A DNA stretch of 63,969 nt from Simkaniaceae bacterium. GTDB taxonomy: Bacteria; Chlamydiota; Chlamydiia; Chlamydiales; Simkaniaceae. The position numbers are program-made. The stretch is taken from the NCBI GenBank assembly GCA_050248615.1, contig JBFWSA010000008.1, forward strand, positions 1 through 63,969, read 5' to 3'. Each line of letters starts with the position of its first letter. Positions within the stretch are counted from its first letter, which is position 1. Below, in pieces: positions 23,055 to 35,000 of the stretch.

Positions 23055-26000
23055 CTAAATCGATTTGTAGACTAAGTGTCTAATAATGGTGGTAAAAACG
23101 ATTTAATGGACACTATATTTAGTTTCTTTTAAGCTGTCCACAAATTTATAAATTTTTAGACAGTCATGCCAGCCGATTTTGGGGTATGACAATCAATGGA
23201 ACGAAAAACTTCAATAAGAGCTGTTAGTTACTTATGAACAGTAAGTTATGTTTTAAATGACCATAAAATAACTAAATCTTTATGACCAACAAGCTAGTTA
23301 GAATAAAGCAATAAGAAGAGGTGTTTTAAAAATTAGATTTCATCTGGATGTCGAAAAATGGTTATTACACGCTCTTTTAAATCGATGAAAAATAAATTTT
23401 CTCTTGATTTTAGCGTCAGAGAAATTAAGTCTGCATACATGTCATAAGGAAATGCTTCTTGGATATTTTTTTCAAAAGTTCCAAATGCATCACTACAGAT
23501 TTTTCTAGATGCTCTATGAGCTTTAAGTCCTGCCTCATTTTGGGCAAGTTCCTTTGCTTTAGCTATTGCTGAATCATAAGCTTGTTGTTCAAAAGTTTTT
23601 GTTTGCAAGCTAAATTCGTGAGGATTGTACGACACTGTAGCCATTATAACCTCCTGGCAATTACATTACCTTCATCAATAGAACCATAGTATATTTGAGA
23701 TTGGTATTCTGTCAAGTAAGGAACATCATTGTGAAGAAAATCATTTAAAACAAGCCACTCAAGTTCAGCTTGTTGTATACAAGGTGTGTAATTCTTTCTT
23801 TGAATTGACTGATTAACGAAACGTGCCATTGAAATGAAAGAATCACACCTTGTTAAACCAGCTAAGAAATGAGATGTGGGTATTGGGACAAAGCGGACAG
23901 GAACTTTTCCAATACTTGCTTTACCTTTTTCTAGGAGTGCTATTTCGGTTTCTGTGAATGGGGGAAATGCAGGCTCAATTGCAAACAACCCCGTTGCATT
24001 ACCGGGCTGAATACTTTCCAAGTCAATAGGAATGACTTGAGCATTGCCTTCTCCAAGATGGGTAAAAATAAGATTTTCTAAGTGTAAATCACTTATATTT
24101 AAAAATTTGCAAACAGATTGTAATCTTAAAAGTTGATTATTTAAGCTTTTCTTTTCTTCAGGAGAACTTGGAAGCCCTTGAATAGCCTCGTCCGCCGAGT
24201 GTCCATGAAGATGCCTTCCTTCGATGAACTCCCAAAAACTCAAATATTGATTACCATAAACCATGTTAATGATAGTATAGGTAGGTAAATCTATGTTTGA
24301 TGACTTTTCTTCTAAAGAGAGAGCATTTAAATCATGGAATATCTGAATAACATTTGCATCAACTTGTGCATCCCTGGGCTTGAAAAAGATGCTAAATAGC
24401 TCAACTTCTCCTAGTGTAAAAACGATTTTGACAGGAACTTTTCCACGATTATGTGTTTCTGACCCATGCGGAAAAAGTTTAAATGAAACTTGTTTTAAAT
24501 CTAAACTAGCAGGATCACCAGGGTAAAATGTTCCAATAATTTCTGCTTTTTTCTCTTCTACAATGGTTTGTATGCCATTTAAAAAACAAACTTGATTTAA
24601 ACAGCGATTTAGCAGTTGTTCCTCCATAAATTTCAAAGAAAGCTCCTGCTTGTGGCCATCAATCCTCCCAAGTTGCCACCAATCAGAAAAAAATTCCGGC
24701 ATAACTCCTAACACATGATTTTCACCCGATAGCTGCTGAATAAAAGTTTTCATGTTCTTTTCTGCTTCTTCTATTGGGTCTTCTAATGCCTCAATTTGAG
24801 CCTCAAGCTCTTCTCGCTGTCTAACAATTGATTCGTTCTCATCGTCAGAAGGAAGCTCATCAAGAGCAGCATCTAATTCCTTAGATTTAGAATTAAGCAA
24901 ATAAACCTCGAAACACAACTTCCTTAGTTTAGCAAAGTCTTTTTCAAGTGTATCAAATTTAATGGAAATCTCTGGTGGTAATGTTTGTAGCTTTTCTCTT
25001 CTGTTAGTCATGGATAGATCAACAGCCTTAAGAATAGCTTGCTCTGCTTTTTGAAATAGATCTGGAGCCTCTACCTTACCTTCCTCCATCTTTGCCTCTG
25101 GAGGATTTACTTTTGTTTCGAAAGAGTCTCTTCTAATCGGGGGGAGTGACAACTAAGACCTCACATATATCATTTATTTTTAAGTGTTTTGCTATTTAGA
25201 TATTTTTTTCTAATCGTATTACTCAATACATTCTCCTAAATTTTGAGTGTTTCTGCAAGGCTAAATGCCATTTTTCTTTGCAAGACTCAAATAACGATAT
25301 AAAGTGGGCCTTGACACTCTGAGCGTTTTACAAATCTCTTCGATCTTTATCGTTTTGTCTTCATGCATTCTTTTTGCTGTCTTCACCCTTGGATCATCAG
25401 AAAGAATCGGCTTTCTCCCCCCTAACCGTCCTCGGGCTCTTGCTGCTGAAAGACCAGCTCGTGTCCGTTCCTGAATTAAGCGCCTTTCAAATTGGGCAAG
25501 AGATGAAAAAATATTAAAGATAAGTTCTCCTGAAGCGGTCGTTGTGTCAATAACTCCATCACAAATCGATTTGAAGCTAATCTCAGATTTCCTAAGCTCT
25601 TCAATGAGTTTGATCAGATGAGAAATTGACCTTCCTAGTCGGTCTAATCGCCAAACAACCAAGGTATCTCCAGCACTTAATGTCTCTAAACATTGAGTCA
25701 ATCCTGGTCTCTCGGCTTTTGCGCCAGATACTTTATCTGTAAAAATATGTTCTTTGTTACACCCAACAGATTTTAGAGCGTTTATTTGAAGCTCTAGGTT
25801 CTGTTCTTCACGACTAACACGTGCGTAACCAATAAATCGACTCATAAAACTTAGTTCGTCTCATTTAGGATTGATTTTAATCAGTTAATAACCTTATCTT
25901 TTCTGAGATAACAAAACAAGATAAAATGTCATCGGCCAAATTATTTGGCATGATTTTTGTCATACAAAATGACTTAGACAAATGGCTGGTATATTATAAT

Positions 26001-32000: not shown

Positions 32001-35000
32001 TGGCTATCAAGATTTTGGAGGGTCGAATCGTTTCCATTTAACTCGTTGGCTATACTCCAGGATCTGGATGTACAGTGAACGCCCCAGTTTGCTATTCGAT
32101 TTTGCAACCTCCTACTTAGTTGAACGAAAGATTTTGCTTCCGGCGGTTTCAACTCTTACACGATTGATTGCTCAAATCAGAGATAGATCTGAAAAACGCT
32201 TATGGAAAAGAATGACATCCCTTCTAAACTCTGAACAGAAATCAAAAATTGAAACCCTTTTACAAATTCCTTCTGAAAATCGTCGCAGCTTATTCGATCA
32301 ACTAAGGAAAGGTCCTGTTCGTATTAGTGGTCCTGCTTTGGTCTCGGCTCTGAAAAGATATGGAGCTCTTAAGAATTTCGAGATCAAAAAAATTGATCTC
32401 TCTTCTATTCCTCCTGTGAAAGTGCAAGTCCTTGCAAGATATGCATCAACAGCATGGGCTGCCTCGATTGCACGGATGCCAGAAGAGAGAAGAGTTGCTA
32501 CTCTCATTGCCTTTCTATCTGTGTTCGAAACTTCCTCTCTAGATGACGCGATCGACTTGTTAGATATGCTCATTACAGACATTGCCAAACAAGCAAAATC
32601 TCTAGGGGAGAAAAAGAGACTTCGGACGCTAAAAGACTTAGACCAAGCTGCAATAGCCCTAAGGAAAGCTTGCATGATTATTCTAGATGATACTTACAAA
32701 GATGAAAACTTAAGAGAGGCTATTTTTACGTCTATTGCAAGAAGCTCCATAAAAGATGCAGTAACTATTGTCGATGAGATAGCAAGACCTCAAGATGGTC
32801 GATTTTATCAAGAACTTGTTGAACGATATCGTCGTGTTCGAATGTTTCTTCCTTCCCTATTAAAAACAGTTTCTTTTCAAGCAACTACTTCAGGAAAACC
32901 AGCTTTAAAAGCATTGCAATGCTTATACCAAATGAAAAAAAAGCGTACATTAACTGTCAAAGACGTTCCTTTGGGAATTGTCTCCTCTTCTTGGAAGCGT
33001 CTTGTTATCAACAAAGGTGAAGTTAGCCTTCCCGCCTATACTCTATGCGTTCTAGAAAAATTCCAGGATAGTTTACATAGGAGGGATATTTTTGTTCCCG
33101 ATAGTAGTCGCTGGGGAGATACCAGAACCAAATTACTTACGAAAGAATCTTGGGAAAATAAGCGAGTAGCTTTTTGTCGTTCATTGGGACACTCTCAAGA
33201 TATAGAAACTAATCTGGATAGGCTCAAGAGTCAACTCGACGTGGCCTATCATCAAGCTGCTAATCACTTTGCCTGTAATGAAGCTTTAAAAATCGAGGAA
33301 AAAAACAAAAAAGCTTCTCTGGTATTAACTCCCTTCTTAGATGAGATCAAAGAACCCGATAGCTTGGTCGAATTGCGAGAACGTGTTTCCTCTCTTCTTC
33401 CTAGGATTGATCTAACTGAAGTACTGCTAGAAATAAATGCCCATACAGGGTTTACAGAAGCTTTTACTCATATTACTGAAAATCGATCGAGGATTGATCA
33501 TTTACCTATCAGTGTCAGCGCAGTTCTAATAGCTGAGGCTTGTAATATTGGACTAGAGCCTCTTGTGAAACCAAACAATCCTATTTTGTCACGGGATCGA
33601 TTAAGCTGGGTGCAACAAAACTACTTTCGTGCAGAAACTTTAACTCAGGCAAATGCATCTTTGGTTGATTATCAATCGAAAATCCCCCTTGCTAAAATTT
33701 GGGGAGGAGGAGAGGTCGCATCTGCTGATGGACTGCGCTTTGTCACCCCGCTCAGGACAATCAACGCAGGCTACAATTCAAAATACTTTGGATCAAAGAA
33801 GGGAATCACTTATTACAATTATACTTCGGATCAATTTACAGGATTCCATGGGATCGTAATTCCAGGGACTCTAAAAGATTCAATCTATATTCTAGAAGGG
33901 CTTCTAGAGCAACAGACTTCCCTTCAACCCTCAGAGCTCATGGCAGACACAGCTGCAGTGAGTAATCTCATTTTTGGTCTGTTCTGGTTGCTAGGCTACC
34001 AATTTAGCCCTCGTCTCGCAGACATTTGTGAAACAACTTTGTGTCGAATCGATCCCAATATTAGCTATGGGATTTTTGATCAATTGCCCTATAAAAAGAT
34101 CAATGTTAATCGAATTAAAGAGAATTTGGATGATATGTTTAGGGTAGCAGGTTCACTCAAAATGGGGACTGTAAGTGCCTCAGAATTGATAAGGTCTCTT
34201 CTTAGAAGTGATCGCCCCTCAAGCTTAACAAGAGCAATTAGTGAACTTGGTAAGATTCCTAAAACAATCTATATGCTCAATTACATTGATGACGAAAGCT
34301 ATCGACGAAGAATTTTAAACCAAATCAATCGCGGAGAAGGGAGACATTCTCTTGCACGATTCATCTGTCATGGGCAACGAGGAGAAATACGTAAACGCTA
34401 TCGCGAAGGGCAGGAAGATCAACTAAGCGCTTTAGGGCTTGTTACAAACGCTGTTGTTCTATGGAATACGATGTATATTCAAAAGGCATTAGACAAGTTG
34501 AGGCAAGATGGTCTTGTTATAAATGATGAAGATGTAGCGAGACTTTCTCCCCTGCAGTACAAACATATCAACGTTCTTGGACATTATTCATTTAATTTAA
34601 GCGAAGAAGTAGTAAGGGGAGAATTAAGGAAGCTTCATCTTCCTGATTATGAATAGCTAATAGCTCTTATTGAAGTTTTTCGTTCCATTGATTGTCATAC
34701 CCCATTTTTTAACAGTTGAGCAAAAGGCGGGATACGGACGCTTTTCTTGTAAACCCAATGAAATGCAACTATCTCGCTATTTTTTGCTCGATGAAAATGA
34801 TTGGGGTTTCATTTCAAGATGCCGAGGAGATGATAACCGACTTGGCATCGCCATCCAACTGACTTCTGTTCGCTTTCTCGGAACTTTTCTCCCTGAAGTT
34901 ACTCATGCTCCTCGCAATGTGAAATCGTTTTTGGCGAACCAGTTGTCTATCGATTCGGTTAGCGTTTTGAAGAATTATGGGCAGAGAGACACCACAAAGC

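Follow-up and report, generated by a model that had tools for sequence, protein, structure and literature searches.

A probable three-level stack of Tn3- and Tn552-type transposons with kinase-like passenger genes in a Simkaniaceae-like chlamydia

How many transposons lie inside one another at this chlamydial locus, and do they carry their passenger genes between hosts? The window (the whole stretch of 63,969 nucleotides analyzed here) had been described in a preliminary way as holding two nested elements that shuttle eukaryote-type effector genes among chlamydiae, a phylum said to be nearly closed to such DNA. The nested transposons of Tn3 and Tn552 kinds are real, and their domain content is as claimed: resolvase, rve plus Mu-transpos_C, AAA_22, two Tn3 transposases, PI3_PI4_kinase (E = 4.8e-8), and DUF4135 (E = 8.4e-11). 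The inverted repeats at 23180-23245/34639-34704 (66 nt, 89%) and 25927-25971/31533-31577 (45 nt, 84%) were likewise recovered. The outermost Tn3-family element, of 16,229 bp, had been missed, and the locus is very probably a chromosomal stack of three transposons in a Simkaniaceae-like chlamydia. Of the 401 genomes sampled across the phylum, 33 contain a Tn3 transposase domain, so such DNA is not shut out; passages of PMC7846284 already describe transposases as plentiful in chlamydiae and genes as passing between plasmids and chromosomes.

Organization of the stack

The outermost element, Tn#2 (21557-37785, plus strand; 16,229 bp, or 4,701 bp without its insert), interrupts a chromosomal ankyrin-repeat gene, leaving 719 N-terminal codons (19400-21556, plus strand) and 248 C-terminal codons in the same frame (37791-38537, plus strand; Ank_2, E = 8.5e-29). 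In 4/4 relatives compared, residues 1-719 of the N part correspond to residues 2-705, or similar ranges, in intact homologs of 949-970 amino acids; residues 2-243 of the C part align to residues 707-948 of such homologs. Tn#2 is bounded by 38-nt inverted repeats of the form GGGG...TAAG (21557-21594/37748-37785, 87% identical) and shares 93% and 84% DNA identity with elements in two relatives. Its passenger, orf218 (21666-22322, minus strand), had no Pfam match at E ≤ 0.01; structure matches to alpha/beta hydrolase clusters in an Atlas search (TM by query, 0.65-0.73) point to a small alpha/beta-hydrolase-fold protein with a GHSQG motif. A 54% identical homolog adjoins a Tn#2-type repeat in another genome (G149). 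The serine resolvase gene tnpR2 (22455-23045, minus strand; PF00239, E = 1.8e-39) is 74-80% identical to plasmid resolvases and is separated from tnpA2 by a spacer (23046-23165) presumed, by position only, to be the res site of Tn#2, in line with the Tn3-family organization outlined in part of PMC7157771. The transposase gene tnpA2 is severed after its first five codons (23166-23180, plus strand) and resumes at codon 6 for 997 codons (34709-37702, plus strand; NF033527, 1026.9 bits); an uninterrupted form is found in G107 (L019). It is 57% identical to tnpA1 of the middle element, and its best observed plasmid identity is 71%. Since the target duplication matches at only four of five positions (TTTCT at 21552-21556 on the left, TTTCC on the right) and the transposase gene is interrupted, Tn#2 may be immobile at its present locus. 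An altered tnpA2 product could start from an in-frame TTG (34670) inside the repeat of the middle element.

That middle element, Tn#1 (23181-34703, plus strand; 11,523 bp, or about 5,865 bp without the Tn552-like insert), is inserted between codons 5 and 6 of tnpA2. Its terminal repeats differ from those of Tn#2 and are perfect over 42 nt, far beyond chance. It encodes a serine resolvase, tnpR1 (25261-25845, minus strand; PF00239, E = 2.7e-48), and an intact Tn3-family transposase of 998 amino acids, tnpA1 (31660-34656, plus strand; NF033527, 1002.8 bits against a cutoff of 500; PF01526, E = 2.3e-145), whose best observed plasmid identity is 58%. The preliminary description found no 5-bp duplication at these ends and suspected an old or rearranged element. 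This was the consequence of a one-base register error: once the repeat is read from GGGG (23181) to CCCC (34703), a perfect ATTTT flanks both sides (23176-23180 and 34704-34708), and the suspicion is void. Two genes previously assigned to the 11.5-kb element, g00533 (tnpR2) and g00544 (tnpA2), lie outside it and are part of Tn#2. The low G+C content (0.34-0.41) does extend across the element, but positions 18000-22500 are equally low and the feature is only partly distinctive. Diverged relatives of Tn#1 carry different passengers at the same place; G030 and L112 hold a DUF6933 and SEC-C pair where Tn#1 has its DUF4135-type gene and orf103.

The innermost element is a Tn552-like transposon (25927-31577, plus strand; 5,651 bp) with ends TGTCA...TGACA in 45-nt imperfect terminal repeats. 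It sits in the tnpR1-tnpA1 spacer, the presumed res of Tn#1, whose left half (25846-25926) ends in GATAAAA and whose right half (31578-31659) begins with it; this 7-bp duplication (25920-25926 and 31578-31584) had been correctly described. Passages of PMC3276174 present res as a known preferred target of Tn552-type elements. The transposition genes encode a serine resolvase (28678-29277, plus strand; PF00239, E = 1.4e-35), a DDE transposase recognized by rve and Mu-transpos_C profile matches (29255-30682, plus strand), and a TnpB/p271-like AAA+ ATPase (30615-31532, plus strand; PF13401, E = 3.5e-17). Identity of the DDE transposase is 52% to a "Ca. Megaera" plasmid, 50% to Legionella, and 47% to staphylococcal plasmids. 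Divergent from the resolvase gene lies orf88 (28060-28326, minus strand), a small gene without a family match; an 81% identical homolog adjoins a decayed Tn552-like remnant in G107. Assignment of the inner element to the Tn5053 type was rejected because it has no TniQ.

Empty sites and mobility

Empty sites exist for all three levels in relatives or in other metagenomes, the latter examined for joints as contigs, which give no frequencies. For Tn#2, contigs in two runs join 21551 to 37786, skipping 16,234 nt, i.e., the element plus 5; the shorter side of the joint measures 188 nt in X6 and merely 26 nt in X4. The halves of the ankyrin gene also abut in 4/4 intact homologs. For Tn#1, the empty site is seen in G107, whose Tn#2-like tnpR-res-tnpA arrangement has a single ATTTT at the homologous place. 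For the Tn552-like element, two genomes (G030 and G060) keep the tnpR1-tnpA1 spacer uninterrupted with one copy of the 7-mer, and a 2,876-nt contig from run X9 joins 25918 to 31577, skipping 5,658 nt (the element plus 7). The same join occurs in two Tn#1 copies that are free of the insert (L111 and L113).

The stack was very probably built from the outside inward. Tn#2, with its hydrolase passenger, tnpR, res, and tnpA, entered the ankyrin-repeat gene; Tn#1, with orf103, the DUF4135-type gene, tnpR, res, and tnpA, then entered tnpA2 after codon 5, duplicating ATTTT. Most recently, the Tn552-like element with its orf88-kinase-orf114 module entered the tnpR1-tnpA1 spacer and duplicated 7 bp. By analogy with the Tn3 family, Tn#1 would transpose replicatively, with TnpA producing a cointegrate that TnpR resolves at res, and plasmids may carry it from cell to cell; a MobA/MobL relaxase gene adjoins one Tn#1-type end. 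Neither a transposition intermediate nor a plasmid-borne copy or cointegrate was observed, and the window's own genome (69 contigs) holds only these copies.

A complete copy of Tn#1 at another locus (L113; 5,862 bp, 99.6% identical) has its own target duplication, TAATA. Copies with 99.5% or higher identity (the window, L111, L113, and L114) have four different right-hand flanks, and L115 provides a fifth context; metagenome contigs hold at least four further settings. The host assignment of L113 rests on one flanking gene. Homologs of this gene are present in 14 of the 17 genomes of another genus of the same family (g4; 85-89% identity to G199) and absent from the other 22 family genomes searched, the window's own genome and genus included. 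In contrast to the 99.6% identity of the Tn#1 copy, the SerRS encoded in the window is just 78-81% identical to its nearest named relatives. Sequence comparison thus supports that part of the earlier claim that has cargo shuttling among chlamydiae, as Tn#1 with its DUF4135-type cargo appears to move between hosts. However, at 38 of the 40 other cargo-homolog loci no gene for transposition lies closer than about 8 kb, so carriage by transposons is exceptional for the cargo families. Because a near-identical Tn#1 copy apparently lies in another chlamydial genus, ordinary mobile DNA appears to carry kinase-like genes between these strictly intracellular bacteria.

Kinase-fold passengers

Structure models confirm the kinase folds of both kinase-like passengers, which, judging from homologs, are members of kinase-fold families native to and widespread in chlamydiae; the passengers' named homologs come from chlamydiae only. 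The Tn#1 passenger is a DUF4135-type protein of 502 amino acids (23644-25152, minus strand; PF13575, E = 8.4e-11). Its model (pLDDT 86) best matches the folds of CylM/LicM2, followed by Vps34, and its conserved residues are K258, D355-x-H357-x-x-N360, and D377. Downstream lies orf103 (23333-23644, minus strand), which matches no family and has no counterpart at any of 20 loci that carry DUF4135-type homologs.

The Tn552-like passenger is a type II PI4-kinase-like protein of 475 amino acids (26513-27940, minus strand; PF00454, 33.7 bits, cutoff 27.1). Its best fold matches are to PI4KIIalpha (Z = 13.8 and 13.1; next match, 8.4), with invariant residues K269 and D361-R-H-x-x-N366 and a disordered, charged N-terminal extension of 83 residues (pLDDT < 50). 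Members of the family occur in 91 of 401 genomes, a single genome having as many as 4 strong matches, and most are not close to mobile genes. The small partner gene orf114 (26082-26426, minus strand) shows conserved linkage: a homolog lies less than 2 kb from the kinase homolog in 13/20 loci and directly downstream in 11/20. A modelled kinase-orf114 complex scored 0.69 (best of 3 controls, 0.00); among solved complexes, 116 of 157 attained this mark, against 2 of 215 mismatched pairs, counts that hold only roughly here because our own alignments were used. Model runs agreed in at least 90% of contacts, with a partner pLDDT of at least 86, and orf114 was placed against the catalytic loop (residues 360-365) and residues 390-399. 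These models support binding of orf114 to the kinase. A protein in the predicted position could equally be an antitoxin-like inhibitor or a chaperone or regulator of an effector. Tentatively, we prefer to see a host-directed kinase held in check inside the bacterium by a small co-encoded partner; the eukaryote-type effector role of the cargo is putative.

Alternative explanations

The stack might result from faulty assembly, or from proteobacterial plasmid DNA that entered as a contaminant and was joined to a chlamydial contig. In favor of this, the genome was assembled from a metagenome and consists of 69 contigs, contigs from other runs break at the repeats, the transposases and resolvases are 58-80% identical to proteobacterial plasmid genes, and 340 enterobacterial plasmid records contain an orphan repeat that matches the repeat of Tn#2. 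Yet every junction carries a family-typical duplication, excising each element restores an open reading frame or intergenic spacer that is intact in relatives, and related elements occur in single-contig chlamydial genomes (e.g., G107, 1.83 Mb). Moreover, at the DNA level none of the plasmid records accounts for more than 5% of the 16.2 kb, and the passengers' named homologs are exclusively chlamydial, which leaves this explanation extremely improbable. It is also quite unlikely that the elements are old, vertically inherited relics whose similar copies stem from close strains of a single organism. In favor of this view, the source sample may be represented by the three best-holding runs, tnpA2 is interrupted, and many of the phylum's Tn3 transposase matches are fragmentary and contain stop codons. 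Against this stand the perfect ends and intact tnpA1 and tnpR1 of Tn#1, its perfect duplications at two different sites, the four flanks among near-identical copies, one of them from another genus, the site that is empty in related strains, and the single Tn#1 copy in its own genome.

The cargo invites a different alternative, namely that the kinase and its small partner (perhaps also the DUF4135-type protein and orf103) form a toxin-antitoxin-like or addiction/defence module that stabilizes the transposon, with the kinase acting on a bacterial target and orf114 neutralizing it. The modelled seat of orf114 on the catalytic loop and residues 390-399 would suit such a role, and the toxin kinases HipT and HipA appear in the list of matching folds, at Z values (7.6 and 7.3; HipS-HipT, 8ezs) far below the 13.8 of the best match. 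One genome (G219) has four tandem orf114 copies after one kinase, as in immunity-gene arrays. The kinase module adjoins the upstream region of a resolvase gene, and toxin-antitoxin pairs beside res are known from Tn3-family elements (PMC7157771, in part). Nevertheless, type II PI4-kinase is clearly the closest fold, no HipA match was obtained with Pfam, and PADLOC matches are weak (E = 7e-4 and worse). The disordered leader would not be expected of such a toxin, and the family, present in 91 of 401 genomes, is mostly found apart from mobile genes. We regard this alternative as rather unlikely while retaining the host-directed kinase as the preferred reading.

Comparison with known systems

Tn#1 and Tn#2 resemble Tn3/gamma-delta (Tn1000) in their DDE transposases of ~1,000 amino acids with DUF4158 and DDE_Tnp_Tn3 domains, a divergent serine resolvase gene with a spacer of about 120-160 bp holding the presumed res, 38-nt-class GGGG...TAAG repeats, and an AT-rich 5-bp duplication. 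Nesting of further transposons is also described for the Tn3 family in part of PMC7157771. They differ in their chlamydial host, in transposases that share just 58% (Tn#1) and 71% (Tn#2) identity with their best plasmid counterparts, and in passengers that are kinase-fold and hydrolase genes of chlamydial families rather than resistance genes. As far as the text of PMC4337579 and PMC7157771 goes, TnXax1 and its kin of Xanthomonas are likewise Tn3-family transposons that spread host-interaction passengers between replicons, a role that is putative here. TnXax1 differs in its TnpS/TnpT tyrosine resolution, its residence on plasmids of a free-living plant pathogen, and passengers that are proven rather than candidate effectors.

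The inner element shares with staphylococcal Tn552 an rve/Mu-type DDE transposase of ~480 amino acids (47% identical), an AAA ATPase, a serine resolvase, and a short duplication. Like Tn552 and the res-hunting Tn5053/Tn402 group as described in passages of PMC3276174, it is inserted in a (presumed) res region inside another transposon. Unlike in Tn552, the terminal repeats are 45 nt at 84% (versus about 120 bp), the resolvase gene lies ahead of the transposase gene and overlaps it, and a kinase module takes the place of the bla genes. At 7 bp, the duplication differs from the 6 bp for Tn552 and the 10 bp in the plasmids of that paper, as given in part of PMC3276174.

The 502-amino-acid passenger resembles the LanM dehydratase domain (CylM, 5dzt; LicM2, 6st5) in its DUF4135 match, best Foldseek hits, and DxHxxN loop. 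It differs in lacking a LanC-like cyclase domain (TIGR03897, 20 bits against a cutoff of 304), in its long N-terminal coiled coil, and in that no precursor peptide gene was recognized. The 475-amino-acid kinase finds its best fold match in human PI4KIIalpha (4hnd/4pla; Z = 13.8 over 263 residues and 13.1 over 235), with the ATP-binding Lys and the DRHxxN catalytic loop kept. At 14% sequence identity, it departs from that enzyme in its helical N-terminal domain, its disordered leader, and its predicted dedicated small bacterial partner.

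Three nested transposons interrupt an ankyrin-repeat gene

The transposons at this locus are real and of known types, their host group is an unusual one, and two of the elements, the middle Tn3-family element (Tn#1) and the innermost, Tn552-like element, have been recently active. The preliminary description had proposed two nested elements delimited by two pairs of inverted repeats. Both pairs were recovered in a repeat search of the window and the nesting is real, but a wider search revealed a third pair (38 nt, GGGG...TAAG, 87%; 21557-21594 and 37748-37785), and the elements number three. 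The outermost Tn3-family transposon, Tn#2 (21557-37785; 16,229 bp), carries orf218, the resolvase gene tnpR2, a spacer, and the transposase gene tnpA2. Tn#1 (23181-34703; 11,523 bp) carries orf103, a gene for a 502-amino-acid (aa) DUF4135-type protein, tnpR1, a spacer, and tnpA1. The Tn552-like element (25927-31577; 5,651 bp) contains orf114, a gene for a 475-aa PI3/PI4-kinase-like protein, and orf88, followed by genes for a resolvase, an rve/Mu-type transposase, and an AAA ATPase.

Inspection of the ends altered several boundaries. The terminal inverted repeats of Tn#1 are 42 nt long and perfect, running from GGGG at 23181 to CCCC at 34703; the extra T/A pair previously counted as repeat belongs to the flank. 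A 5-bp duplication, earlier reported as missing from these ends, is present and perfect (ATTTT on both sides). The resolvase gene at 22455-23045 and the second transposase gene, both listed in the earlier description, lie outside 23181-34703.

The stacked transposons knock out an ankyrin-repeat gene of which sister strains have an intact copy. Tn#2 splits the gene's open reading frame into a 719-codon N-terminal part (19400-21556) and a 248-codon ankyrin part (37791-38537) in the same frame, and the halves align end to end (e.g., residues 2 to 705 and 707 to 948) with intact homologs of 949 to 970 aa in 4/4 relatives compared. The sequences flanking Tn#2, TTTCT and TTTCC, are identical at four of five bases. 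Tn#1 is inserted after the fifth codon of tnpA2, with the ATG start at 23166 and the frame resuming at 34709. From there the frame reads like the beginning of tnpA1, and an in-frame TTG at 34670, within the Tn#1 repeat, might permit an altered TnpA2. The Tn552-like element, flanked on both sides by the 7-bp GATAAAA, occupies the middle of the 156-bp tnpR1-tnpA1 spacer, 75 to 81 bp upstream of tnpR1 and 76 bp upstream of tnpA1.

Family membership of the elements

Tn3-family elements have ends with a GGGG tip and TAAG inside, duplicate 5 bp of target, and carry the resolvase site (res) in the tnpR-tnpA spacer; they transpose replicatively, via a cointegrate, and display target immunity. Judged by sequence, Tn#1 and Tn#2 are of this family in transposase, ends, duplication, and resolvase, with res presumed by position. 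The NCBI Tn3 model NF033527 scores tnpA1 at 1002.8 bits and tnpA2 at 1026.9 bits, about twice its cutoff of 500. PF01526 and PF13700 match both products, which are 57% identical to each other. Terminal repeats of the expected length (∼38 to 40 bp) with the GGGG tip and internal TAAG delimit both elements. The 5-bp duplication of Tn#1 is ATTTT in the window and TAATA in a metagenome copy (L113), with a single copy of the target in the chlamydial genome G107; that of Tn#2 is identical at 4/5 positions, and contigs with an empty site skip the element plus 5. Serine resolvase genes divergent from tnpA are present in both. The accessible part of PMC7157771 describes the family as having a ∼1,000-aa transposase, 38- to 40-bp ends, and a resolvase with res, and it already reports virulence passengers and the nesting of Tn3 elements in one another. 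TnXax1 of Xanthomonas bears type III effectors (PMC4337579, accessible part).

The innermost element has the gene set required of Tn552-type elements, namely an rve/Mu-type DDE transposase, an AAA ATPase, and a serine resolvase. Its transposase aligns at 47% identity, over 100% of the length, with copies on staphylococcal plasmids that have an AAA ATPase next to them; the best plasmid relatives are from "Candidatus Megaera" (52%), Legionella (50%), cyanobacteria (48%), and staphylococci (47%). Gene set, a short duplication (6 to 7 bp for the type), and target choice are held in common with Tn552, whereas the duplication is 7 bp here and 6 bp for Tn552-type elements in the available text of PMC3276174. 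The element has none of the ∼120-bp terminal inverted repeats of Tn552, only 45 nt at 84%, and for this reason we name it Tn552-like. Tn552 favors res sites and other transposons as targets (PMC3276174, same portion), a preference that the insertion fits if the tnpR1-tnpA1 spacer is taken as the putative res.

A DNA search of the 16.2 kb against plasmids had two results only: 41 nt from a Tn#2 end, in 340 records, and a single stretch of 872 bp matching at 72%. The 41 nt (37745-37785), which include the right Tn#2 repeat, match an unannotated plasmid stretch at 97.6% in these records, mostly from Klebsiella and Escherichia. In the one plasmid record inspected of the 340, this orphan Tn3-family end has no adjoining transposase gene.

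Empty sites

The complete genome G107 contains a Tn#2-like element (84 to 88% DNA identity) in which tnpR, spacer, and tnpA are unbroken and a single ATTTT occupies the homologous place where the window has two. The transposase gene of this copy (L019 = C1:494859-500441, at ∼1501-1506) is without 372 bp corresponding to 34831-35203 of the window; because no open frame across the match exceeds 519 aa, we consider the copy decayed. A single 7-mer in place of the Tn552-like insert is found in genome G030, in L113, and in a sediment contig of run X9. In G030 and a further genome (G060), Tn#1-like tnpR and tnpA are separated by an unbroken spacer with one 7-mer (GACAAAC in G030).

Contigs of 4 of 23 listed public runs, selected for differing studies and habitats, were compared with 20000-39500. 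A biofilm contig joins 21551 to 37786 with 188 nt on the shorter side, skipping 16,234 nt (Tn#2 plus 5); the same joint in a second landfill study is weak, its shorter side spanning just 26 nt. A 2,876-nt sediment contig (X9), otherwise ∼99.7% identical to Tn#1, joins 25918 to 31577 and skips 5,658 nt (the Tn552-like element plus 7). As these data are contigs, they demonstrate presence, not frequency. Small-share runs among those listed are uninformative on habitat, and the lack of contig cover over the window's chromosomal flanks in run X9 is a hole that proves nothing about the host.

Copies of Tn#1 in other hosts

When JGI metagenome contigs were screened for exact matches to a 29-nt sequence from the Tn#1 tip, five were retrieved. 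One of them, L113, contains a complete Tn#1 (5,862 bp) with 99.6% identity to the copy in the window; this Tn#1 is free of the Tn552-like insert and has TAATA on both sides. The copies in the window, L111, L113, and L114 are at least 99.5% identical over at least 2 kb, and their right-hand flanks are four different ones. Homologs of the gene flanking Tn#1 in L113 occur in 14/17 genomes of g4, another genus of the same Simkaniaceae-like family (85 to 89% to pieces in G199); the 22 remaining genomes searched, which include those of the window and of its genus, have none. Assigned by this one flanking gene, the host of L113 would place Tn#1 and its passengers in two genera at 99.6% identity. Because a housekeeping protein (SerRS) differs by ∼20% between such hosts, we read this as recent transfer. 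With the host so assigned, L113 provides direct evidence that Tn#1 carries chlamydial passenger genes between genera. To this extent the earlier proposal of transposon-borne gene exchange among chlamydiae holds; the status of the passengers as effectors is that of candidates only.

The Tn#1 match in L115 extends over 117 nt only (96.6%). At 1-3220 of this contig, the Tn#1-type end adjoins a MobA/MobL relaxase-helicase gene, and an ATPase gene is also present, which hints that a Tn#1-type element may also reside on a mobilisable plasmid or integrative element.

Landfill, marine, biofilm, and sediment metagenomes all have contigs with Tn#1. A diverged relative is ∼80% identical in L112 and 78% identical in G030. 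In both, the slot between tnpR and the near end (L112, 1796-3173; G030 [L022, C47], 128-1565) holds a DUF6933 gene and a SEC-C-motif/TPR gene in place of the DUF4135-type gene and orf103, an assignment made by Pfam on the G030 open reading frames only and by similar frame sizes in L112. In a genome-contig collection from which records near the window's genome are possibly absent, a search with the 29-nt Tn#1 end returned 0 matches; of 89 pattern matches to the DUF4135-type protein, 0 were confirmed.

The kinase-like passenger and orf114

The 475-aa protein passes PF00454 (PI3_PI4_kinase) at 33.7 bits (cutoff, 27.1). The ATP-binding K269 and the D361, R362, H363, and N366 residues of the DRHxxN loop are invariant in 8/8 sequences. 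The fold class of PI3/PI4 kinases also includes the protein kinases HipA, CotH, and Fam20. The HipA Pfam does not match the 475-aa protein, and its structural model (pLDDT 72; residues 1 to 83 disordered) is nearest to human type II PI4-kinase (PI4KIIalpha; Z scores of 13.8 and 13.1, next match 8.4), with the toxin kinases HipT/HipA well below at 7.3 to 7.6. Profile and conserved residues argue for membership in the PI3/PI4-kinase superfamily; phosphoinositide kinase activity is putative. At the level of titles and abstracts, we found no report of a chlamydia-encoded PI kinase among chlamydial PI4-kinase effectors, and the only chlamydial effectors mentioned in the accessible part of PMC8242063 are CopN and Pkn5. 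PADLOC gave only weak matches on the two kinases (E values of 7e-4 and worse).

A homolog of orf114 lies within 2 kb of the kinase gene in 13/20 loci and directly downstream in 11. A complex model of kinase residues 85 to 475 with orf114 scored 0.69, compared with 0.00 for the best of three controls. The mark for this score was reached by 116/157 solved complexes and 2/215 mismatched pairs, counts that hold only roughly because our own alignments were used. At least 90% of contacts agree between runs, with an orf114 pLDDT of at least 86. The model supports binding of orf114 to the kinase, and the predicted interface includes residues 390 to 399 and the catalytic loop (360 to 365), a placement that points to a regulator or inhibitor role. 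Such an interface would fit an effector with its keeper and a toxin-antitoxin-like pair alike. No Pfam, NCBIfam, or PADLOC family was found for orf114, orf103, or orf88, and orf114 had no usable match in an Atlas structure search. Genome G219 contains four kinase paralogs in all, one of which is followed by four tandem orf114-like genes (L103 = C1:1294903-1311994, 5189-7657).

The DUF4135-type passenger and the spread of both families

The model of the 502-aa protein (pLDDT 86; residues 1 to 30 disordered) matched the folds of LanM dehydratase domains and then Vps34. At an E value of ≤0.01, the protein matches only DUF4135 (profile positions 4 to 174 of 378) and, below threshold, Seryl_tRNA_N. 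A class II lanthipeptide synthetase (LanM) was considered and ruled out, as the protein fails TIGR03897 (20.4 bits; cutoff, 304) and a domain profile search found no LanC-like cyclase domain in it. By BLASTP, the 475-aa and 502-aa proteins have no detectable likeness (best E value, 1.7).

Close relatives in a large protein collection number 8 for the 475-aa family and 18 for the 502-aa family, and all named ones are chlamydial. Profiles (E ≤1e-5) detected the families in 91/401 and 37/400 sampled genomes of the phylum, respectively, although some of those counted are weak and to larger proteins. For the two passengers as candidate type III secreted effectors, this expansion of their families in chlamydiae and their disordered N termini are indirect evidence only. 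Around 20 of the best-scoring loci per family, ∼8 kb to either side was searched with the window's transposition proteins. None occurred near the 20 kinase-homolog loci, and a Tn552-type resolvase occurred near 2/20 DUF4135-type loci (G292 and G107); thus, transposon carriage is the exception for both families. In G292 (L082, C69, 8004-10115) and G107 (L088, C1, 7989-12964), the resolvase gene (75% and 89% identical, respectively) lies upstream of a distant DUF4135-type gene in the same direction, the order of resolvase then DUF4135 being that of Tn#1.

The Tn#2 passenger orf218 has an alpha/beta-hydrolase fold (Atlas's own model), and G149 has a 54% homolog adjacent to a repeat of Tn#2 type. 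No meaningful match came from PDB profile searches (A3, E value of 0.17 at best; A1, no match; A2, prefoldin only, E value 0.044), and a promoter scan did no better than chance (30 hits versus 29.5 expected).

Occurrence in the phylum and implications

Chlamydiae live only within eukaryotic cells, and the genomes of the pathogenic family are nearly closed. Plasmids explain the open pangenomes of environmental families only partly. The Tn3 transposase domain was detected in 33/401 sampled genomes of the phylum and 7/34 in the window's family, many matches being fragments. Strong matches to the Tn552-like transposase were limited to 2/400 sampled genomes, the window's and a decayed fragment in G107 (3 stops); the remaining 20 matches were weak and rve-type. 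No further copies of Tn3-type or Tn552-like transposases were found in the window's own genome. Transposases are abundant on chlamydial plasmids and plasmid-chromosome gene flow is frequent (PMC7846284), and Parachlamydiaceae have an open pangenome (PMC8242063), according to the accessible parts of both papers. The literature available to us, supplements aside, yielded no description of Tn3-family or Tn552-like transposons, or of their nesting, in chlamydiae.

The locus offers a concrete, dated example of how environmental chlamydiae keep open pangenomes: a canonical Tn3-family element with swappable passenger slots, whose presumed res region is a landing pad for a second transposon. A more far-reaching scenario, which we think rather unlikely, is that an active, chlamydia-native Tn3-family lineage jumps genera, is invaded by a res-hunting Tn552-like element, and that both spread a secreted PI4K-like effector with its inhibitor. 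The jumps would presumably take place in coinfection of one protist and via mobilisable plasmids, and the effector, resembling type II PI4-kinase and traveling with its own inhibitor, would represent a new class. If true, these would be the first known examples of natural transposons functioning in chlamydial cells, and they would provide a ready-made genetic chassis for a phylum in which manipulation is very difficult. The intact, apparently working transposition modules from chlamydial hosts are candidates for genetic tools, and the kinase and its partner form a defined pair for biochemistry.

Chromosomal setting

The window's flanks consist of chromosomal housekeeping genes (E1 dehydrogenase, serS [16511-17788], M18 aminopeptidase, P-type ATPase, glutamate dehydrogenase, and hrcA) within a 2.04-Mb assembly of 69 contigs that is 96% complete. 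The best named relatives of SerRS are from "Simkaniaceae bacterium" (81%), "Chlamydiales bacterium" (79%), and "Candidatus Neptunochlamydia" (78%). Adjoining serS, and outside the finding, 15107-16231 encodes a 374-aa protein whose residues 1 to 166 match UPF0158 (E value, 2e-76). Just 3' of the split ankyrin gene, 38648-38805 contains a 42-nt inverted repeat (90%) with a 74-nt spacer, which is probably a hairpin MITE; in run X4, the bin with this repeat is ∼6-fold above its neighbors in summed contig depth (72.6).
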